From an uncultured Candidatus Saccharibacteria bacterium (GTDB lineage: Bacteria; Patescibacteriota; Minisyncoccia; Phycocordibacterales; UBA918), in contig CAZRNZ010000001.1 in the NCBI GenBank assembly GCA_964601615.1, positions 185,968 to 249,967 on the forward strand: a DNA stretch of 64,000 nt, in the 5' to 3' direction. The position numbers and the translations under genes are program-made. This document shows, piece by piece, positions 3,330 through 57,156 of this stretch. Position 1 is the stretch's first letter. Every line of letters starts with the position of its first letter. Under the pieces are notes generated by a model, which had not been told where the DNA came from, did no database searches, and worked only from the letters and a program-made list of their open reading frames with translations.

Positions 3330-4372
3330 ACCTCACCTCTGTAGAAAACAACCGACTGTCCCGCAGCTGGCTTTTCAATATTTTCTTTAGCTGAAATATA
3401 AAGACCATCTTTATCAGACAAAACATTAACCAAATCTGTTTTTCCCCGATAACGAAATACAGCTTCTGTTTCTGGTTCGTCAATTCTGTCTAGAATAATA
3501 TTTTCATTATTTATTCTAATTTTAGTTTCGCTACCAATTTCTGGCGGCTTTATATCAACAATAATGGAGTTTGTTGTAACATCTTTGGCAACAACAAAAT
3601 GTGGTTTGCGTGCTTTTTCGCCAAAAATAGTAAATCCATGTCTTTGTCCTAATGTATAGATAAGTGCCCCTGTATGTTCACCAATTATTCCACCACGTAC
3701 ATCATGTACAGCCCCTTTTTTTAATGTAGTAAAGTGACCAATAAATTCTGGTATATCAACGTGACCAAGAAAACAAACTCCTTGACTATCTTTCTTTACA
3801 GCAGTTGGAATACCGGCGTCTTTGGCCTCTTTTCTAATATCTATCTTTTCTGTATCTCCTACTGGGAATAACGTATGTGCGAGATCTTCTTGTGTCAGAG
3901 TCCACAAAAAATATGATTGATCTTTTGATGTATCCAAGCCTTTTAAAAGCTGATAAGAATCACCCTCCTTTTTTACTTGAGCATAATGTCCGGTAGCAAT
4001 AAAATCAGCACCATGTTTTTTGGCAAACTCCCAAAAAGCACCAAACTTTACGTGGCGATTACACATTACGTCTGGGTTTGGTGTGCGTCCAGCAATATAT
4101 TCTGAAATAAAATAATCACCCACACCTTTCTTGTATTCTTCTTCTGCATCACAAGTCAGGAAAGGAATTTTTAGGTGCGCAGCAACTCTCATTGCATCAA
4201 GTCGTTCTTCCTCCCAATTACAAACCAAAAAATCTGGGTGCCAAACTTTAATAAAAACCCCAACTACGTTGTAGCCTTCTTTTATTAAACGCAAAGCAGC
4301 GACCGAGGAATCTACTCCGCCCGACAACCCCACAAATACAGTCTTATCTTTGTTTTTATATCTTTCAAACAT
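3302..4372 (-). CDS. mnmA: tRNA-specific 2-thiouridylase MnmA
   Basis: PP-loop VGLSGGVDSSVAA, catalytic Cys region, conserved C-terminal barrel. 356 aa. Confidence 0.9.
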   Translation of the reverse strand: MFERYKNKDKTVFVGLSGGVDSSVAALRLIKEGYNVVGVFIKVWHPDFLVCNWEEERLDAMRVAAHLKIPFLTCDAEEEYKKGVGDYFISEYIAGRTPNPDVMCNRHVKFGAFWEFAKKHGADFIATGHYAQVKKEGDSYQLLKGLDTSKDQSYFLWTLTQEDLAHTLFPVGDTEKIDIRKEAKDAGIPTAVKKDSQGVCFLGHVDIPEFIGHFTTLKKGAVHDVRGGIIGEHTGALIYTLGQRHGFTIFGEKARKPHFVVAKDVTTNSIIVDIKPPEIGSETKIRINNENIILDRIDEPETEAVFRYRGKTDLVNVLSDKDGLYISAKENIEKPAAGQSVVFYRGEVCLGGAVIS

Positions 4373-5353
4373 TTATCTTAAGTACTTTGCAACATTTGCC
4401 CTATGTTCGTCAAATGTTTTTGCGTAATAGAAATTTCCATCGTCACCAGTGATGTAATAAAAATAATCACTTTTTATTGGATTTAACACAGCATTTATAG
4501 CTTGAAGTCCAGGATTTCCAATTGGAGTTGGTGGCAATCCATCATAAAGATAGGTATTGTATGGCGTATCTTTTTCTAAATCTTCTGGGGTTAAGGTATT
4601 TAGTGGACGATTGAGTACGTATTCAATCGATGCATCTACTTGAAGTCTCATTCCATCCTCAAGGCGATTTTGTAGAATACCTGAAACCATCTTCATTGAA
4701 TCTTCTGTATTAGCTTCACGTTCTAGAATAGAGGCTAATACAATCACACCTTCACCTAAAGGATGTAATCTAATTTCTTCTTGCAACAAAAGGGTCTTCT
4801 CTTCATAAGTTGCTATTAAAAGTTCAGCTAGCTCCAATGCTGCAAAATCAGCCGGAATAAAATATGTATCTGGAAAAAGATATCCCTCTTTACCTTTAAC
4901 TAGGTTTAAAAATTCTACTGAATCAAAATCGGGTAAAATTTGTTCTGCAATACGGGCGTATTCAGTAGCTGTATATCCCTCAGGAAGAGTTAGTGATAGA
5001 AGATTTTCACCAGCTGAGCCTTGAGTAATTTTTTTAGCAACTTCGAAGACGTCAATTGGTTCTGAGAAAAAATATGTACCTGCCTGAATTGAAGCTGGAT
5101 CATATTTACTAACCAATAATACATATAAAAATGCTGCGGACTTAACTACACCCTCATCGCGTAATAAATCTGAAATAGCAGAAGCAGAAAGTCCTCTTGG
5201 AATTGTTACTACCTGTTCTTCTGGAAAATCTTTTGGTGCTTTTGATTGACTCCAAACAAATAGACTAGTGGAAATAATTAATAAAATAAAAGCAGTGAAC
5301 ACATAAATCCACAGTGACCTCTGGGGTCTTTTTGTATTATAGGTTTCAATCAT
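4373..5353 (-). CDS. mltG: endolytic murein transglycosylase MltG (YceG-like)
   Basis: N-terminal TM anchor, YceG-like domain ending ...YFYYITGDDGNFYYAKTFDEHRANV. Abuts mnmA start. Confidence 0.85.
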   Translation of the reverse strand: MIETYNTKRPQRSLWIYVFTAFILLIISTSLFVWSQSKAPKDFPEEQVVTIPRGLSASAISDLLRDEGVVKSAAFLYVLLVSKYDPASIQAGTYFFSEPIDVFEVAKKITQGSAGENLLSLTLPEGYTATEYARIAEQILPDFDSVEFLNLVKGKEGYLFPDTYFIPADFAALELAELLIATYEEKTLLLQEEIRLHPLGEGVIVLASILEREANTEDSMKMVSGILQNRLEDGMRLQVDASIEYVLNRPLNTLTPEDLEKDTPYNTYLYDGLPPTPIGNPGLQAINAVLNPIKSDYFYYITGDDGNFYYAKTFDEHRANVAKYLR

Positions 5354-6898: not shown

Positions 6899-7927
6899 TT
6901 AATCGGCAACTAGAGTGTAAGCACCATTTGATAATCTTTTGAAAATATTTGTATCTTGGAGATTTACAACGATTGTGTTGTCCTTCACATATCGCTCTTT
7001 GCGAACCTTATCTATGATTTCTTCGCGAGTTAGTGGACCGTATTTTTCGAGAATGTCTCGCAAAACATCTTTTACCACACCAGCTGAGTAACCCCATTCT
7101 GACAGAGCATATAATCCGCGTCCTACCAAAACAAATCTTTTATCTTTTATCAGCTCATTATGAGTTGTGGCAATATGAGCTTTGCGGCCAAACAATTCCT
7201 CAATTGCTTTTGCTACTTCACGGAAATGCATTGGAGAACCATGACGCTTTACAACAAGGTAAGCATAATCACGAACTCCTTTAACCTTCACATTTGGACT
7301 TGAAGTGTGTCCCCATTCACCAAGTGGATTTCGAGAAATGTCCTTTGAGATAAGTAGCCAACGCTTCAAAACCTCATCATCGTATTTGTCAGCAATGTCG
7401 ATAAGTTGTTCACGAAAACGTGACAAAACATCATCTTCGGTTACCAGCTGATCACGCTCCATTGATTGATGTACGTTTTTGAGCGCCTTTTCAACCATTT
7501 CAGCAATTTTCTTTTCTGTAAACCAACGGTGTTGGTAAGAAGTATTTTCCTTTGAACGATAAAATGGATTTCCAACAATGAGTAAGAAATACAAGTGATT
7601 TCTAGTAACTTGGTCGGAAGATAGAGAATTTAGAAGATGATCTTCTGCAATAACTCCACCACCGATTTGATTTATTACACCTTGGAGTTCTTCAAAAATA
7701 AATTTGAATTCATCATAAGCCTCAGACTTCTGAATAGAGCTGATAGCATAACCTTCAATCTGACGGACACGCTCACGCGTAATACCGTAAATTTGACCAA
7801 TGGCCTCAAGGGTATAGGACTCTGGGTCAGAACCAATGCCATAACGCTTTTCCAGAACATCACGAGCACGCTCTGGAAGAGTGGACAATAACTTTTTGGT
7901 AATCTGCTTTGGTTTAAAAGTGATCAT
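6899..7927 (-). CDS. sigma-70 region-4-like HTH plus C-terminal HARE-HTH (winged helix) domain protein
   Basis: N-terminus LPERARDVLEKRYGI...TLEAIGQIYGITRERVRQIEGYAI matches the sigma70 region 4 pattern. C-terminus MHFREVAKAIEELFG...FVLVGRGLYALSEWG matches HARE-HTH (RpoE delta-like). Confidence 0.6.
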   Translation of the reverse strand: MITFKPKQITKKLLSTLPERARDVLEKRYGIGSDPESYTLEAIGQIYGITRERVRQIEGYAISSIQKSEAYDEFKFIFEELQGVINQIGGGVIAEDHLLNSLSSDQVTRNHLYFLLIVGNPFYRSKENTSYQHRWFTEKKIAEMVEKALKNVHQSMERDQLVTEDDVLSRFREQLIDIADKYDDEVLKRWLLISKDISRNPLGEWGHTSSPNVKVKGVRDYAYLVVKRHGSPMHFREVAKAIEELFGRKAHIATTHNELIKDKRFVLVGRGLYALSEWGYSAGVVKDVLRDILEKYGPLTREEIIDKVRKERYVKDNTIVVNLQDTNIFKRLSNGAYTLVAD

Positions 7928-8028
7928 AGATTTGATTTATCCTCCAAAATTCAGGAACTGGCGGTGATTTTGCCATAGACTTTATTGGATGTCCAGCATA
8001 CTACCACCTCCTTTGACATACGTCAACT

Positions 8029-47620: not shown

Positions 47621-48271
47621 GTGACAGAAAATAGGTTCTTTGTACTAGTTGGCGCAACAGGTTCTGGAAAGAACACAATGCTGGGCAAACTGGAAGATCA
47701 TTTCACAAACGATTCAAATGCCGTTCCTTGCGACTCGACAACTGTCGATCGAGTCACAACGAGTTTCATTCGAATTGATACAACTTGCGGGAGAAAATAT
47801 CCGCTTTCTAAATTGCTGAAAATCTGGTCAAGAATCAGCGAACAAATCGAGGGACAGGTTAAGCCTGCTCTTTTGCGTGGCGACCGCGTTATCATGAACG
47901 CGTTTGGCGGCACAGCTTTTGCTGAGGCTATGGTTCATGCTTCTTCAGACAACGAAAGTAAATCTATTCTCGAGATGCATAAGGCAATTATTCCCCACTG
48001 CGTTATCGGAATTGGAGTCAGACCTCCCATTTATATCTGGCTCAAAGTAAGTCCTGAAGTCGCTCTTTTGCGACGTCGGGCAGACAAAACCCTCCCAAAA
48101 AATATCACTGATCCTCTCGGTTATATTGAAAATTTGAATAAGCAGTTTGAATTCTATGGCAGTCTCCCAGGACAAACTGTTATTCCGGTTGATGCAAATC
48201 AACCAATCGAAATGGTCTTTCGTGACATATTAAACATCATCGATCCACAGGACGTGGCCGAAGCTGCTTAA
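47621..48271 (+). CDS. thymidylate kinase-like P-loop nucleotide kinase
   Basis: GTG start after an AAGGAG RBS. P-loop VLVGATGSGKNT, DRx-like GDRVIMNAFGGTAFAEA, lid LLRRRADKT. GC ~45%, above background. Confidence 0.6.
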   Translation: MTENRFFVLVGATGSGKNTMLGKLEDHFTNDSNAVPCDSTTVDRVTTSFIRIDTTCGRKYPLSKLLKIWSRISEQIEGQVKPALLRGDRVIMNAFGGTAFAEAMVHASSDNESKSILEMHKAIIPHCVIGIGVRPPIYIWLKVSPEVALLRRRADKTLPKNITDPLGYIENLNKQFEFYGSLPGQTVIPVDANQPIEMVFRDILNIIDPQDVAEAA

Positions 48272-51350: not shown

Positions 51351-51357
51351 TATTTAA

Positions 51358-51657
51358 TTATAACTTCCGCAAAAGACCTACCACAACTCCCCATAAAACA
51401 GATTCTTCTTTGATATCTTGCTTAATTATTTCTAGTTTCAATTCTCCCTCGACAGTCACGACCGCCAAATCATTTACTTTTGCCGTCAAAGACCTATCTA
51501 CTACCAAGACATCTTGCGCTTTTACATCACTACCAAGCGGACCATCTGACTCCATCTCCATGTAGAAAGTAGCTGAAGGATTCTTCACCAAAAAATTATT
51601 TATATCTAGAGAAAGATGATCTTTCTCATAATCACTTGTACTAAATATTTTGGCCAT
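51358..51657 (-). CDS. UmuD'-like S24-fold protein (catalytic dyad apparently absent)
   Basis: By-eye alignment to UmuD: [29 protein letters not shown] vs NPSATFYMEMESDGPLGSDVKAQDVLVVD. The Ser of GDSM aligns to Gly. No Cys-Gly/Ala-Gly cleavage site in the N-terminus. Confidence 0.6.
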   Translation of the reverse strand: MAKIFSTSDYEKDHLSLDINNFLVKNPSATFYMEMESDGPLGSDVKAQDVLVVDRSLTAKVNDLAVVTVEGELKLEIIKQDIKEESVLWGVVVGLLRKL

Positions 51658-51660
51658 AGA

Positions 51661-52689
51661 CTAAGCAATTACTACACCTCCAGCTACTACAGAATGAAGC
51701 ACAAAAAGCAAAGCCATTACAACAAAAAGTCCAGCACTATATGCTACCTGAACTGAATGTTGTTTACGCCACTCAATAAACATTGAAGACAGAAGAAGTC
51801 CAAATATTATCAAAGCAATTCCTGCATAAACCATTTGTAACAACAATCTAGGTGAAGTTGCAATTTTACCGATAAACGAAGTAGGTTCTTGCTTTATAAC
51901 TTCTCCACCAGAAACTTCTGCCAAAACTGCTCCCTCTACTGAAGTTTCAGCGTAACTTTCATAAACCACAGTTCCTTCATCCGTAACATTTACACTTGTA
52001 TCAACTCCAGCTACCTCACCCTCTACTGGATCAACTACAGTTTCTTCAGGAATAACTAATTCCACTGGTGAAATAGCTGCTGCAATTGGTTCAGCTACGG
52101 CTGGCGTACCAAACATCTGTACCACAAAAACTGTATCGTACCCTTCATAAGTCCCTTTAGCAGTACCAATACCAATCTCACGATAGTTTCCATTCATGAT
52201 ATTAGCTCTGTGGGTAGGAGAATTAAGCCAAGCATCAACTACAGCAGTAGAATCAGTAAAATGCACCGCTAAGTTTTCGCCAGCATGAGCATAAGTGTAT
52301 TTAGCCTGACCAAACCAATACCAAGGAGAAGTTCCATCTGGACTCCAGTGAGCAAAGTATCCTTTTGCCGCCATATCATCAGCCTTAAGCTGTGCTGCCA
52401 CATCTAGCGATGAATTTCTGATCAATGGAGGTAGTGACTCACTAGCGCGAGCTTTGTTGGTAGCATCAGTCACGACTGCCGGTAAAATAGTAGAAACAAG
52501 CCAATCTGAACTAATCCAAACAATTGATTGCAAATTTGCTAGAGCGAAAGAAAGTAGAACCATCATCAACATCAAAACCATAGCGAAGCTTTGCAAACGA
52601 TTTGGCTTCAAACCACCATCTTCTTCTAAAGTATTATCCTCCTTAATTTCATCTGTCATGCCATAAATAATATCATCCTTTCTGACCAA
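51661..52689 (-). CDS. membrane-anchored CAP/SCP (YkwD-like) domain protein
   Basis: TM then GYFAHWSPDGTSPWYW...HAGENLA...GNYREIGIG, typical of the CAP superfamily. Followed 3 nt later by umuD'-like. Confidence 0.7.
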   Translation of the reverse strand: MVRKDDIIYGMTDEIKEDNTLEEDGGLKPNRLQSFAMVLMLMMVLLSFALANLQSIVWISSDWLVSTILPAVVTDATNKARASESLPPLIRNSSLDVAAQLKADDMAAKGYFAHWSPDGTSPWYWFGQAKYTYAHAGENLAVHFTDSTAVVDAWLNSPTHRANIMNGNYREIGIGTAKGTYEGYDTVFVVQMFGTPAVAEPIAAAISPVELVIPEETVVDPVEGEVAGVDTSVNVTDEGTVVYESYAETSVEGAVLAEVSGGEVIKQEPTSFIGKIATSPRLLLQMVYAGIALIIFGLLLSSMFIEWRKQHSVQVAYSAGLFVVMALLFVLHSVVAGGVVIA

Positions 52690-52703
52690 ATATGAAAGAA
52701 AAA

Positions 52704-52732
52704 TGAAAAAGGCCGGAGCTTCGCTCCGGCCT
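52704..52732 (-). terminator. AAGGCCGGAGC-ttcg-GCTCCGGCCTT hairpin flanked by A5/T4
   Basis: Directly after the stop of the 52747..55143 gene. Confidence 0.65.
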
Positions 52733-52746
52733 TTTCCGCCAACAAA

Positions 52747-55143
52747 TTAAGAAATGCTACGCTTTCTCCAGATTACATATCCTGCAATCAAGACAGCTAG
52801 CAAGATAAACCACCAAATCAGATTAAACCAAGAAAATGTATCTTCTTCCTCATCATCACTTTCTTCTTGATTTATAACCAAATCTTCATCCTCAACGATA
52901 ATTTCCTCTTCTTCAATCACCCCCTCAAGAGTAGAAGTAGATGCACTATTATCAGTTGCTTGTGCATTAGCAGTATCAGCAATTCCAAGAACATTACCAG
53001 CCTGATTTTGAGCTGCAATTACTGAAAGTTCTATCAAACGCTGCTTAATAGCCTCAAGTAGTTGATATAGCTCCTCATCTGTGGAAGCGCCTAATACCTG
53101 TGGTATCGGGCCAGTATTTGTGTCACTATCTCTACGACCACCACCACTCGTTCCACCTCCAGTAGAAGGATTAGTTTGTTCTGGTTCAGCAGTAAACGCT
53201 ACAGCCACCCTATATGGCCAATCATTATCTATATTAAAGCCACGTAAACGACCACTATAAGTTGAATCCCAAAATAGTTGATTGTCTATTACATCATTAC
53301 CTATGTAAGGGGCCAAAGCGACATCAGTGTTTAACCCAACATTTAAAGAGTTATACGGTCCATCAACACCAATTGGTGAGTCACCATAGCTTTGCGTATT
53401 GAACTTAACTCCATAAACAATACTATCTGGTACTGTAATTCCTGTTAAATCAAAGACTACAACATGATTATATCCGCTATAACAATTTCCCTCAGTGTCT
53501 TTCCATTGGTTTGTATCGGTACAAATTGGATTAGCTGATGGTCTAAACGGAATATTGAATGTTTGAGTTTTTGAGGTAATTAAATTACCTGCTGTACCAT
53601 CATCCGCCACTTCATAGATATTCAAAGTAATAGGATGAGAGAAAGTCGCACCAGGAGTAGTTTCACAAAGACCAGAATTCCAGGTATTTGACTCACAGGC
53701 CCAACTAGTTAGAGTAATAGCGCCACTCAAGAGATTGCGATTAGTCCCAGCAAAAGTTAATAAATCTCCTACCTCGTAAGTCTGTGTAGCCTGAAATGAG
53801 AGACTTGGATAACTAGGCGGAAGTATTGGAGATATAGCATCGTATATTACATCACCACTTAATGATGGCTTTGTCGGAGAAAGTACTGGATCTGGTACAG
53901 ATAAGACATCAAATCTAACCCAATCAAAGTCCCAATCACGCTCTCCCCCAAGTGCCAGGCGCACTTCTACAGTACTGTCAGCTGAATAAGTCAAAATCCG
54001 AGGCCCTGCACCAAGAGCACATTCTGCTGGTTTTGGCACAGTACGTCCATCTACACATGGTCCAGGATGAATAACATCACCTGTAACGACCGGATGCGCA
54101 GTGCTTCCCACAGAAACTCCATCAATCCGAATTTCGAATCTAGCCAAAGAGTTAGTAGTATTAACAAACTCCAGAGTAATGTCCTCAGTACCTGTAGTTA
54201 GAAGATTAACGTGAGGGCGTTTATCTGTACGATTAGTATCATTTGTACTCGGAAATACATAAGGTAATAGAGGAAGAATATCTGCAACATCCCAACCATT
54301 AGGTTCTACCAAGTTACTATTCTCAACCAAATAATCTGCAGAAGTATTACCATTACTGTAAGTAACAATAATAGCTACCTTAGTAGGAACGTCGTCAGAA
54401 GTCCAAGTGTGAGAACCAAGATTCCAGTATGTTTCTGTATAAGTACCATTTTTAATAATAAATGGAGTACTTAAGGAAGTCTCTCCATTATTTATCAAAT
54501 CAAGTAGAGCTTGATTGTGATTATTTTCTACAATCAAATCACCTCCCTTATAGAGCTGGACCTTGACCGCACTAACAGTGCCAAATTCCTTCTCTAGAGT
54601 AAAACCTACATTTATACCCTCGTAATCATCACCTACATGGGTATTAAAGTTTGTGGCAGTAACCACATGAGATATCACTGGTTCAGTGACTGTCACAACC
54701 ATTGTTGCAGGAAGACCTCTATCAACCCCACCTACCTGAGCCTGTACCGATATGGTATAGGTGCCAGCTAAAGCATTTTTGTAACAGAAATTTTCATTCT
54801 TATTTTTATCTGAAACAGTTCTTGTCTGTAGACTTGTACCAAGATCAGTTGTACATTCTGAAGCATTAGCATTAGTAAATACTCCTCCTTTATTGTCATC
54901 GGTCAGTATTAATTCAGTCTGCTCATTGGTTTCATTAACCATATCATCAGTTAGCTGAGCCTGTAAACGTATCGGCACATTAACTTCAGCGGTTACTCCT
55001 GCATGAGCAGAAACACCTACACCCGTACGTGCTGCAAAAGCAGTCAGTGCTCCAAACGGCAAAGAAGTTGCCAGAAGTGCAGCAATACCCAATAAAGATA
55101 CTGTCTTTCGCACTGAATCTGGAAAATTAAATATATAATTCAT
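52747..55143 (-). CDS. large cell-surface protein with C-terminal acidic region and TM anchor
   Basis: Start taken at the signal-peptide Met (MNYIFNFPDSVRKTVSLLGIAALLATSLP), not the upstream Met at 55263. ~800 aa beta-rich, Thr/Asn/Gly-rich. C-terminus is a DEEEE acidic tract, then a TM and KRSIS. Confidence 0.6.
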   Translation of the reverse strand: MNYIFNFPDSVRKTVSLLGIAALLATSLPFGALTAFAARTGVGVSAHAGVTAEVNVPIRLQAQLTDDMVNETNEQTELILTDDNKGGVFTNANASECTTDLGTSLQTRTVSDKNKNENFCYKNALAGTYTISVQAQVGGVDRGLPATMVVTVTEPVISHVVTATNFNTHVGDDYEGINVGFTLEKEFGTVSAVKVQLYKGGDLIVENNHNQALLDLINNGETSLSTPFIIKNGTYTETYWNLGSHTWTSDDVPTKVAIIVTYSNGNTSADYLVENSNLVEPNGWDVADILPLLPYVFPSTNDTNRTDKRPHVNLLTTGTEDITLEFVNTTNSLARFEIRIDGVSVGSTAHPVVTGDVIHPGPCVDGRTVPKPAECALGAGPRILTYSADSTVEVRLALGGERDWDFDWVRFDVLSVPDPVLSPTKPSLSGDVIYDAISPILPPSYPSLSFQATQTYEVGDLLTFAGTNRNLLSGAITLTSWACESNTWNSGLCETTPGATFSHPITLNIYEVADDGTAGNLITSKTQTFNIPFRPSANPICTDTNQWKDTEGNCYSGYNHVVVFDLTGITVPDSIVYGVKFNTQSYGDSPIGVDGPYNSLNVGLNTDVALAPYIGNDVIDNQLFWDSTYSGRLRGFNIDNDWPYRVAVAFTAEPEQTNPSTGGGTSGGGRRDSDTNTGPIPQVLGASTDEELYQLLEAIKQRLIELSVIAAQNQAGNVLGIADTANAQATDNSASTSTLEGVIEEEEIIVEDEDLVINQEESDDEEEDTFSWFNLIWWFILLAVLIAGYVIWRKRSIS

Positions 55144-55386
55144 AAAGATTTCTAAAATTCTGAATAAAACCAAGTAATCTTTGCTAAAAGGAATCTTGTA
55201 TATAAATAAACCGCACGCACAAACTAGTGCATGCGGTCTAGGCCGTCCAATATCTATATCCAAGAATTTTCCATTCAGCGTTCATGGTTAACCTCATTAT
55301 ATCACCTATTTTTATAGTCAACCATAGTGTGTGGAAAACAAAAAACCGTGCAAATGCACGGTTTTTGTTGAGAAACTTAGTAAAAA

Positions 55387-57156
55387 CTAGTTTGTTTGTC
55401 CAAGCAACTCTTGTAGACGCTTGATAGCAGCCTCAAGAAGTGCGCGTAGAGCAGCTTCGTCTGTAGTTGAAATTACAGTTTCAGCATTCATAGCGGCACG
55501 AGTAAGTGGACCGAAAAATCCAGTTGCACTAATACCCTTAGAAGTCTGATATGTACGCACAGCAGCTTCAGTCATAGTGCCAAAATAACCTGTTGGAGCT
55601 TCGATATTTAGAAGACCCTTAGCAATAAGAACCTTCTGTAACTCAACCACATCAGAGTGAGTAGAACCAACACCTAGATCAACATTGAATTTGAATGAAG
55701 ATACAGCAGATGTAGCCTCTCCCAGAACCTGTCCTTCAGGAATAGTTGTAGTTTCTACTGTTGTAGCACGACTACCTCCACGAGAACCGCCTGTTGAACC
55801 ACCACCATTATTAACTGGAGCTGGTTTAAGATTATATTCAAAACCTGCACCAACTTCAGTTTTATTGTACTGAGAATTAGTATCTACAACAAACACGTCA
55901 GTCTTAGCTTTATCGTCAATCCAAATAGCTGGCTTCCCCTCAGCATCAGAGTGGGTGCTTTTACCGTTAATAGTTAATTTAGCCTCGGTTTCAACATTAA
56001 CACCACGGTCAACGTTTACACCATTCCAACCATTGTTCTTAGTAGTCAAATTATTAACAGTTACAGTTGAACCATTAACAAGAAGACCTGACTTGCCGTT
56101 ATTCTGTACAGTTACGTCATTAAGAGTAACACCTGTAGCCTTCCAAACTTGGATACCATGCTTATCAGCATTACCTCCAACAACTAGGTTATTTAGAGCA
56201 ACATCAGAAGCAGTTATAAGAACGTAGCCCTTAATTTCTGAAGAATTACCAGTGATTGTTACTGACTTGTTGATTGTGATATCTCCAACGAATTCTCCTT
56301 TTGAAAGTTTTACAACTTCATCAACACCAGCATTCTCTATAGCAGAAGCAATAGAAGGATAGATCGTGATTGTATCACCTCTTACAATGTAAGCATTATT
56401 TACCAAATCTCGATCAGTCCAAATCTTCTTTGAAGAAGACTGAGCAAATACTACATATTCATTAAAACCTGAAGCATCAACAATTCCATAACCATTTTTG
56501 CCATCAGACCAAATTTGATTAGTCTCTGAAAGAGAGCCATTGACTAGGGTAAATTCAGCCCCAGTAACATCAACGTTTACAGCACCCCAAGCATTACCTG
56601 AAGTAGTTAAACCATCAACATTAACACTAGACTTGTTAACAGTAAGACCAGACTGATTGTTATTAACTATATTGACATTAGTCAAAGAAACATTTGATGA
56701 GTTAAAAATATTTACACCATGCTGTTTGGTTTTTTTGTTTATACCATTAACAGTAATATCTTTAATTGAGACATTTTGTGTATCAATTACACCAATTATA
56801 GAATTATCAATACCATTTTCAGTCCACTCATAATTATGTGTCAAAGTGAAACCAGCACCATCAAGATTAATAGATTTCTTAATAGTAACTTGCTTATCAA
56901 GTTCAATGTCAGTTAGTAGAACCACTGTATTACCCTCAGTTGCAGCAGAAATTGCAGCATGAATTGTTTCATATTCAGTACCATTAACTTCAGCTACTTT
57001 TACAACTTCTTGCACCTCAGGATCTTGAGATGCAGGTTCAACTCCATCTTCAGCTCCAGCAAAAAATGGAGCTGATAAAAATGCCACTGCAAGCATTAGA
57101 GTACCTGCAACTAAGCGTGTCTCGAAGGACATCTTACTAATTGAATTAGTAAACAT
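55387..57156 (-). CDS. secreted right-handed beta-helix (pectin-lyase-like) protein with C-terminal peptidoglycan-binding domain
   Basis: Signal peptide, repeated NxxG/VNG beta-helix turns, Gly-rich linker. C-terminal PG_binding_1-like VVELQKVLIAKGLL...TGYFGTMTEAAVRTYQ...GISATGFFGPLTRAAM. Confidence 0.65.
   Translation of the reverse strand: MFTNSISKMSFETRLVAGTLMLAVAFLSAPFFAGAEDGVEPASQDPEVQEVVKVAEVNGTEYETIHAAISAATEGNTVVLLTDIELDKQVTIKKSINLDGAGFTLTHNYEWTENGIDNSIIGVIDTQNVSIKDITVNGINKKTKQHGVNIFNSSNVSLTNVNIVNNNQSGLTVNKSSVNVDGLTTSGNAWGAVNVDVTGAEFTLVNGSLSETNQIWSDGKNGYGIVDASGFNEYVVFAQSSSKKIWTDRDLVNNAYIVRGDTITIYPSIASAIENAGVDEVVKLSKGEFVGDITINKSVTITGNSSEIKGYVLITASDVALNNLVVGGNADKHGIQVWKATGVTLNDVTVQNNGKSGLLVNGSTVTVNNLTTKNNGWNGVNVDRGVNVETEAKLTINGKSTHSDAEGKPAIWIDDKAKTDVFVVDTNSQYNKTEVGAGFEYNLKPAPVNNGGGSTGGSRGGSRATTVETTTIPEGQVLGEATSAVSSFKFNVDLGVGSTHSDVVELQKVLIAKGLLNIEAPTGYFGTMTEAAVRTYQTSKGISATGFFGPLTRAAMNAETVISTTDEAALRALLEAAIKRLQELLGQTN

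Follow-up and report, generated by a model that had tools for sequence, protein, structure and literature searches.

Here we describe a 99-residue protein encoded in a 64,000-nucleotide (nt) stretch of DNA from an uncultured Candidatus Saccharibacteria bacterium (assembly GCA_964601615.1, contig CAZRNZ010000001.1, positions 185,968 to 249,967)—this whole stretch is called the window below, and all coordinates and strands are window positions. The gene lies between one for a membrane CAP-domain protein and one for a UmuC-type Y-family DNA polymerase, with all three open reading frames (ORFs) on the minus strand, and its product is probably an accessory subunit of the UmuD' type for the adjacent UmuC, genetically pre-processed and non-proteolytic; we refer to the gene as mini-umuD' and to the protein as mini-UmuD'. 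In canonical DNA polymerase V (Pol V), UmuD meets a filament of RecA on single-stranded DNA (RecA*) and removes its own N-terminal 24 residues, using a Ser60/Lys97 dyad and a Cys-Gly or Ala-Gly site, after which the UmuD'2 dimer activates UmuC. By the textbook account this self-cleavage is a late checkpoint, releasing mutagenic Pol V only once DNA damage persists. A sequence-only reading of the window had proposed that the short protein would act as a constitutive UmuD'-like partner of the neighbouring polymerase, and the proposal is supported by the loss of the dyad, the UmuD'-like start of the protein, its conservation, and the intact UmuC beside it.

The 99-residue protein is a bona fide UmuD homologue and not a chance match. 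It matches the NCBIfam UmuD model PRK10276 (E=1.3e-14), UmuD' and UmuD entries of the PDB (phmmer, E about 1e-8), the NCBIfam HumD model NF051876 (E=7e-7, 29.2 bits, short of the curated equivalog cut-off of 120), and Pfam Peptidase_S24 (PF00717; E=1.3e-4, 22.1 bits, narrowly missing the gathering score of 23.3); its identity to E. coli UmuD is 23-30%. An AlphaFold2 (AF2) model built on a 48-sequence alignment contains five strands and a short helix, with a predicted local distance difference test score (pLDDT) of 84.9 overall and above 90 in the core; pLDDT is low over the first 18 or so residues, consistent with a flexible N-terminal arm. The top Foldseek matches of this model are UmuD' (1ay9, 1umu) and RecA-bound UmuD (8gmt), with template-modelling scores of about 0.67-0.70, followed by LexA C-terminal domains. 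By sequence and by fold, then, the protein is homologous to the S24 catalytic domain, and the by-eye resemblance to UmuD on which the sequence-only reading was built is borne out by NCBIfam, phmmer and Foldseek alike. A Pfam search for the YolD-like family PF08863 in the protein gave no match at E<=1.

Both catalytic residues have been replaced. The HMMER alignment is ungapped across the catalytic region—ASGDS60M of UmuD lies over MESDG39P, and FTVK97 over LKLE76—and three independent MAFFT alignments recover the same columns. In these columns the nucleophile Ser60 (motif GDSM) is Gly39 (SDGP) and the general base Lys97 is Glu76; across the clade of short forms described below, the Lys97 column holds E, Q, T, G, R or C. 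The earlier reading had seen both substitutions by eye, and both stand up to comparison by profile, by pairwise alignment and by structure. It had also noted the lack of a Cys-Gly or Ala-Gly cleavage site, and inspection of the N-terminus (MAKIFSTSDYEKDH...) found neither; a longer precursor carrying such a site is excluded because an in-frame TAG lies two codons upstream of the mini-umuD' ATG.

The N-terminus corresponds to that of a processed UmuD. Mini-UmuD' starts M-A-K-I-F5, and Phe5 occupies the invariant Phe26 column in the alignment with E. coli UmuD (C24/G25-F26-P-S-P) and phage P1 HumD (M/GFPSPAADY), where slashes mark the cut position or its equivalent. The protein starts almost exactly at the post-cleavage N-terminus of UmuD' and at the gene-encoded start of P1 HumD; with only about four residues ahead of the Phe26-equivalent there is no room for a pro-peptide, and the arm begins at about the position of Gly25/Phe26, as in UmuD'-type proteins. 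In addition, about 20 residues (UmuD ~100-120) are deleted: the span matching UmuD 99-126 is 9 residues long, compared with 27-28 in canonical proteins. By analogy with the structural literature on UmuD and LexA, the deleted segment would be a hairpin flanking the active-site cleft.

The short form is shared by relatives and is under selection. A scan of GTDB species genomes with a 6-sequence alignment as query placed the nearest genome relatives, at 44-50% identity, among metagenome-assembled genomes of Patescibacteria (Kaiserbacteria, Nomurabacteria, UBA6201, UBA918); Marinomonas matches of apparently 100 amino acids (aa) in the same scan were rejected, as they are really canonical UmuDs of 148-152 aa whose length was a tblastn artefact. 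Nine loci carry the short form, all from Patescibacteria (the window, L001, and L003-L009), and comparison of these umuD homologues found the dyad-less state kept throughout. The ORF is intact in all nine at 43-75% identity and encodes 95-102 aa when counted from the conserved start M[AG]K[VI]F; lengths of 112 and 113 aa listed for L006 and L008 reflect upstream alternative start codons. Gly-Pro (G39-P40) invariably replaces Ser-Met, the Phe5 and WGV motifs are invariant, and the deletion and the N-terminus are identical in type across the nine. The ratio of nonsynonymous to synonymous substitution rates (dN/dS) for mini-umuD' of L003 versus L006 is 0.044, and more distant pairs have a proportion of nonsynonymous differences (pN) of 0.18-0.37 with the synonymous proportion (pS) saturated; because purifying selection is this strong, mini-umuD' is not a decaying pseudogene. 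The window protein and a 74%-identical homologue lie on contigs of 310 kb and 346 kb.

The mini form arose within this lineage from a canonical ancestor, since it occupies the same position next to the CAP gene and is more similar to the canonical UmuDs of the Candidate Phyla Radiation (CPR) than to short forms of other phyla (38-54% identity over the core). Canonical UmuDs of 145-152 aa sit directly downstream of the orthologous CAP gene in about 20 Patescibacteria genome loci, and all 37 complete UmuDs in metagenome loci are of this kind; they have GDSM, VVKRL, an A/GFPAPG site, and the 28-residue segment.

The polymerase encoded next to mini-umuD' is intact. It matches the Pfam families IMS (4.8e-31), IMS_C (2.6e-20) and DUF4113 (2e-14), in the architecture expected of UmuC, and the catalytic residues Asp8 and S-I-D-E 101-104 are present along with a clamp-motif-like QLMIF. 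Its NCBIfam UmuC match (E=1.5e-80) is colinear over 3-421 of 422 positions; the score of 271 is under the subfamily cut-off of 431, so this UmuC is a divergent member. The C-terminal tail (SPNYVSSWSELPKV) lies within DUF4113 and is conserved to the same degree whether the partner UmuD is a short form or a canonical CPR one, and likewise in proteobacterial UmuCs. In the E. coli enzyme, by published account, the UmuC C-terminal tail is the main UmuD'-binding site. A RecA N-terminus-like pattern can be seen by eye in DUF4113 (LMKVIDSLNSKIGIDAVTIG); a local alignment to the RecA N-terminus did not reach significance, with 27 of 500 shuffles attaining its score. A umuC-type gene is adjacent to or near umuD in L001-L008 as well as in the window.

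These observations can be assembled into a mechanism. Once the gene start was placed at the cut position, neither pro-peptide nor cleavage site would have been needed any longer, nor the dyad or the segment of about 20 residues, and all four would have been lost; the useless dyad would have been replaced, by Gly-Pro for Ser-Met and by a variable residue for Lys. The parts retained are an N-terminal arm, apparently flexible, that carries the conserved Phe, along with the beta core, the C-terminal strand WGVVxGLLRKL and a short helix (LDINNFL). In E. coli UmuD', the N-terminal arm, helix, beta core and C-terminal strand mediate dimerisation and UmuC contact. The published Pol V model has the arm of one UmuD' protomer inserting near the UmuC active site. 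By analogy, mini-UmuD' may dimerise, bind UmuC and activate it, and would undergo no cleavage of any kind. The Pol V-like enzyme of this Patescibacteria lineage would then assemble without the RecA*-dependent cleavage checkpoint, and control would rest with transcription and protein turnover, and possibly with the binding of RecA to UmuC.

Three points weigh against mini-UmuD' as an activating subunit of this kind. Its Pfam and NCBIfam scores are under the curated cut-offs, which makes it a divergent member of its family; UmuD'2 stability or RecA contact might depend on the deleted segment; and umuC is found 2-3 kb from umuD, behind unrelated genes, in L003, L005, L006 and L008, so stoichiometric co-expression is not guaranteed.

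The sequence-only reading had also found a membrane CAP protein unusual as the first gene of a translesion-synthesis operon. The domain assignment is secure (Pfam PF00188, E=5e-20, 72.9 bits against a cut-off of 21.1; TIGR02909 YkwD, 5e-29, under cut-off), and the architecture is uniform across the family, with an N-terminal transmembrane (TM) helix ahead of the CAP domain and, after it, a variable linker that leads to a conserved C-terminal module of two TM helices. In the window protein the domain spans residues ~75-193 of the 342-aa ORF, followed by an acidic linker and the two-TM module (...IEWRKQHSVQVAY...). CAP ends 0-20 nt ahead of umuD in most CPR loci; about 27 Patescibacteria genome loci show the linkage, as do 36 of the 61 metagenomic CAP loci whose downstream sequence reaches at least 1.5 kb, and it persists where umuC has moved 1-3 kb off and the outer flanks differ. 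Obligate coupling was considered and rejected by scanning in reverse from the CAP loci: 25 of the 61 have neither umuD nor umuC, including L083 and L084, which hold the two CAPs closest to that of the window, and L007 has a short umuD-umuC pair with no CAP. The linkage is therefore real and widespread in one CPR clade, and not obligate in either direction; the neighbour is indeed unusual and conserved, but only to that extent. Inherited CAP-umuD synteny, perhaps reinforced by reliance of umuD on the CAP promoter, is the simplest reading, and a functional link of CAP to Pol V, such as membrane control, is of low probability.

Several other explanations for the locus must be considered. One is that mini-UmuD' is an inhibitor or manager: bound to UmuC, to DinB or to the clamp, it would hold back mutagenic synthesis or serve in a checkpoint, in the manner of non-cleavable full-length E. 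coli UmuD (S60A). Catalytically dead E. coli UmuD is anti-mutagenic according to review text, the dyad is absent here, and the RecA-like alignment in UmuC did not reach significance; however, for inhibition and for its checkpoint function E. coli UmuD needs the uncleaved N-terminal 24 residues (PMC5342242), and these are exactly what mini-UmuD' is missing. Since it begins at the UmuD' start, like the activating HumD, we regard an inhibitory role as unlikely. A different possibility is that the gene is a functionless umuD remnant drifting in a reduced genome, given that catalytic residues, N-terminus and internal segment have all gone and that scores fall under curated family thresholds. CPR genomes are reductive, which also speaks for decay. 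Against this, the selection analysis above (intact ORFs, low dN/dS, pN far below saturated pS) largely refutes drift; together with the invariant Gly-Pro, Phe5 and WGV and a predicted fold that is confident and compact, it makes a remnant highly improbable.

It has also to be asked whether CAP, mini-UmuD' and UmuC form a functional module, in which the membrane CAP protein tethers or sequesters polymerase subunits and so replaces control by RecA*-dependent cleavage. The placement of CAP directly upstream of umuD even where umuC is displaced would fit, and it would echo the transient membrane sequestration of E. coli UmuC (PMC4552617); the many CAP loci with no umuD or umuC and the CAP-less pair in L007 would not. 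The CAP domain, lying between N-terminal and C-terminal TM helices, is moreover probably extracytoplasmic, and the linkage is older than the short form, since canonical UmuDs have it. Vertical inheritance with dependence of umuD on the CAP promoter being simpler, a three-part module seems to us rather improbable. Finally, mini-UmuD' could still be a protease or still be processed, through a shifted pair of Ser37 (the Ser of ESDG) and Lys74 or by cleavage in trans by another S24 protein. Ser37 is two residues before the Ser60-equivalent, and Lys74 is two before the Lys97-equivalent and would face the same side of the strand; neither is conserved among close relatives, where the columns hold S, T, G, V or E and K, R, I or E, respectively. 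With no Ala/Cys-Gly site and about four residues before the Phe26-equivalent there would be nothing to remove, and we give continued proteolysis hardly any weight. The constitutive UmuD'-type subunit thus remains our preferred reading.

The three genes are tightly packed, with spacers of 3 nt (CAP stop to mini-umuD' ATG) and 7 nt (mini-umuD' stop to umuC GTG), and had been read as one operon. The CAP-umuD' part of that claim may stand; for umuC there are signs of a separate promoter. A TATAAT box overlaps the Leu and stop codons of mini-umuD', 6 nt upstream of the umuC GTG, and is kept in L001 and L003-L006—in L001 despite a synonymous change of TTA to CTA. Beyond the clade, TATAAT or TATACT occurs 6-9 nt before the umuC start in almost all CPR loci, about 40 of them further to those just named, and in most of the loci with umuC 0.6-3 kb away. 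Similarly, the -10 box TATTAT before CAP (52667-52672, after TG-n) ends 7 nt before the ATG at 52659, and a leaderless-type layout also precedes CAP in L003 and L005. No Shine-Dalgarno sequence lies between these TATAAT or TATACT boxes and the umuC or CAP start codons (ATG or GTG). This pattern suggests that umuC may have its own leaderless-type promoter, and that leaderless transcription may be widespread in this Patescibacteria group. Because the conserved boxes point to an independent umuC promoter, and with umuC 0.6-3.1 kb from umuD in many relatives, the term operon may hold for CAP and mini-umuD' only.

The junction between umuD and umuC seems to be a hotspot for insertions, while that between CAP and umuD is tight. 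Gaps of 0.6-3.1 kb filled with variable, unrelated genes occur in L003 (5403-7400), L040 (5431-7822), at equivalent positions in L005, L006 and L008, and in L037, L043, L044, L050, L051, L058 and L069; their contents include proteins of 368 and 165 aa and, labelled by eye, cupin-like, Ham1/ITPase-like and IS200-like transposase-like ORFs. In L040 (~7860-7960), tandem GTGAAA/GTGGAA-type hexamers lie immediately upstream of umuC beside an IS200-like transposase ORF. Two closely related genomes have palindromes 35-60 nt upstream of a separated umuC (ATACAAATGTAT in L003, ~7395-7420; CATATAAATATG in L006, ~4350-4375), which could be an operator or could simply reflect shared ancestry.

No sign of SOS control by a known LexA box was found. 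Scanning the 250 nt ahead of each of the three genes in the window, including the region upstream of 52689, with E. coli, Cheo, alpha and other known box types—a set in which the Patescibacteria-specific motif is not included—gave no match, and the corresponding scan of eight clade members gave scattered matches only. Across 69 CPR CAP-umuD loci, Cheo-type boxes were at background level, with no enrichment (15 observed against about 17 expected), and an unbiased palindrome count found no palindrome shared across the CPR loci. By tblastn, neither lexA nor recA is present within the 64-kb window.

Short dyad-less UmuDs are not confined to Patescibacteria. An exhaustive profile search returned 4,845 UmuD-like representatives, and we classified the 119 best matches of up to 170 aa, a set whose counts are enriched by the query profile: 50 are short and without Ser and/or Lys, 8 are short with both, 17 are full length without the dyad, and 44 are canonical. 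Some metagenomic N-termini may be truncated, an artefact that does not explain the internal deletion. Dozens of clusters at 50% identity carry the same short dyad-less traits. One example, P0008, starts MYSQ/GFPSPA, has GERL instead of GDSM and Val instead of Lys, and is encoded directly upstream of umuC in a high-GC contig (L002) from a lineage unrelated to Patescibacteria; its cluster at 90% identity or above includes a dyad-less 99-aa protein of Hydrogenophilus, WP_459828944.1. The NCBI name of the latter, translesion error-prone DNA polymerase V autoproteolytic subunit, is contradicted by its sequence; it was transferred by family and is probably wrong on autoproteolysis. A single origin of all short forms was considered and rejected: their monophyly is unsupported, with core identity among short forms (43-78%) similar to that between short and canonical forms (44-68%), a pattern consistent with repeated, stepwise degeneration.

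Tandem proteins form a further group. P0015-P0027, P0029, P0034, P0037, P0046, P0052, P0121 and P0123, of 220-300 aa, contain two UmuD-like domains; the Phe26-equivalent usually survives in the N-terminal half, which has lost Ser and/or Lys (AR, FQ, LQ, GG, DA and others), and the C-terminal half usually keeps both. From their sequences these resemble natural UmuD heterodimers in a single chain, in which one protomer is dead. More broadly, and tentatively, loss of the RecA* checkpoint could be recurrent: mini, dyad-less UmuD's, born processed and acting as pseudo-proteases, might have evolved separately in Patescibacteria, in Hydrogenophilus-like Proteobacteria and in numerous further lineages, with intermediates and one-dead-protomer tandem fusions, making a distinct, unrecognised class of Pol V to which the CPR CAP protein might add spatial control. 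We consider this broad scenario possible, though doubtful as a whole. In the literature searched, no description of dyad-less mini-UmuDs was found.

The features of the locus are collected in Table 1. The terminator-like hairpin closes an upstream gene for an 838-aa surface protein and is the 5' boundary of the CAP-umuD'-umuC block. The mechanical CAP ORF (52689..51661, 342 aa) opens at the TTG at 52689; a start at the ATG at 52659 is more likely, and the resulting 332-aa product has an exact match in a public protein collection. The CAP stop TAG (51661-51663) is in frame with the mini-umuD' ATG (51655-51657), giving TAG-TCT-ATG, so that read-through would fuse the two proteins; a fusion of this sort was dismissed, as the spacers in relatives are variable and mostly out of frame, and the arrangement is probably coincidental.

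Table 1. Features of the CAP-umuD'-umuC block in window coordinates.
Feature	Position	Strand	Basis or description
Intrinsic-terminator-like hairpin	52705..52737	-	15 pairs, 9 of them GC, then a T-run
Promoter-like site before CAP, TTCATA-18-TG-n-TATTAT	52667..52696	-	Consensus match only
Membrane CAP/SCP (YkwD-like) protein, 332 aa from ATG 52659	51661..52659	-	Pfam, NCBIfam, family alignment
Mini-UmuD', 99 aa, S24/UmuD fold	51358..51657	-	Profile, pairwise and structural comparison
TATAAT box, candidate umuC promoter (leaderless)	51357..51362	-	Conservation
UmuC-type Y-family DNA polymerase, 420 aa	50088..51350	-	Pfam, NCBIfam

Beyond the block, large surface-protein genes upstream of CAP, typical of CPR cell-surface gene clusters, encode very large secreted or surface proteins (52747-55263 and 55387-57156, both on the minus strand, and L003:40-3591) that share a C-terminal motif, ...VLGASTDEELYQLLEAIKQRL...; the 838-aa protein and its L003 homologue have a TM anchor at the end and, in a Pfam scan that covered these two and not the 589-aa protein, no Pfam domain. 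On the other side, a 216-aa P-loop protein (47621-48271, plus strand) matches thymidylate kinase only below threshold (24.7 bits, where the cut-off is 27), and its gene is followed by that of a SulP/STAS transporter, convergent with umuC.

A conserved, selected, non-cleaving UmuD would imply that in some bacteria a Pol V-like enzyme operates free of the cleavage checkpoint. The bacteria concerned are ultra-small, probably symbiotic members of the CPR, and similar proteins occur in cultured Hydrogenophilus. This bears on the control of mutation supply in reduced genomes and on the minimal structural needs of a UmuD' subunit, which might be met by about 95 residues without the segment of about 20 residues at UmuD 100-120. 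There are also practical uses: proteins of this type are now named as autoproteolytic subunits or left unnamed, which can be corrected, and a natural minimal UmuD' would be of value for structural work on Pol V. We expect the result to be of moderate interest to specialists in translesion synthesis and the SOS response.

Comparison with known systems places mini-UmuD' within the UmuD family, at a reduced extreme. E. coli UmuD/UmuD' (Pol V; MEROPS S24; 1umu, 1ay9, 1i4v, 8gmt) shares with it homology, fold, a gene directly upstream of umuC, the conserved helix, beta core and C-terminal strand, and an arm from the UmuD' N-terminus. In contrast to E. coli UmuD, the window protein has neither Ser60/Lys97 nor the Cys/Ala-Gly site, and it lacks the 24-residue pro-peptide and about 20 further residues; without dyad, site and pro-peptide it should be unable to act as an autopeptidase and should need no RecA*-mediated activation. 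Canonical Patescibacteria UmuD (P0006; L040:4875-5312) resembles it in its position after CAP, its core identity, and the family of the partner UmuC, but retains the dyad, the site and the 28-residue segment in 145-152 aa, so that the window form is a derived, reduced state. Acinetobacter UmuDAb is likewise a UmuD homologue that has evolved away from the standard role, although in the opposite direction: it is longer, keeps self-cleavage, and is a LexA-like repressor. The YolD/YqjX proteins (PF08863), proposed UmuD counterparts of Gram-positive UmuC-like polymerases, are also small, non-proteolytic and encoded beside UmuC-like polymerase genes; their beta core is SH3-like, and their N-terminal arm has been modelled into the polymerase. 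They are evolutionarily distinct, non-homologous analogues, whereas sequence clearly marks the window protein as a homologue of UmuD. Phage P1 HumD reportedly complements UmuD' (McLenigan et al. 1999, J Bacteriol 181:7005). HumD (NF051876), annotated as complementing UmuD', is the precedent for a functional gene-encoded UmuD' and the closest parallel in design—it too is synthesised already cleaved, with its Phe aligned to that of MAKIF. Unlike the window protein, HumD keeps Ser, Lys and a full-length C-terminal segment, and its annotation records a LexA box and the absence of a cognate umuC. Mini-UmuD' is thus not a new system; it goes beyond HumD, which retains the dyad.

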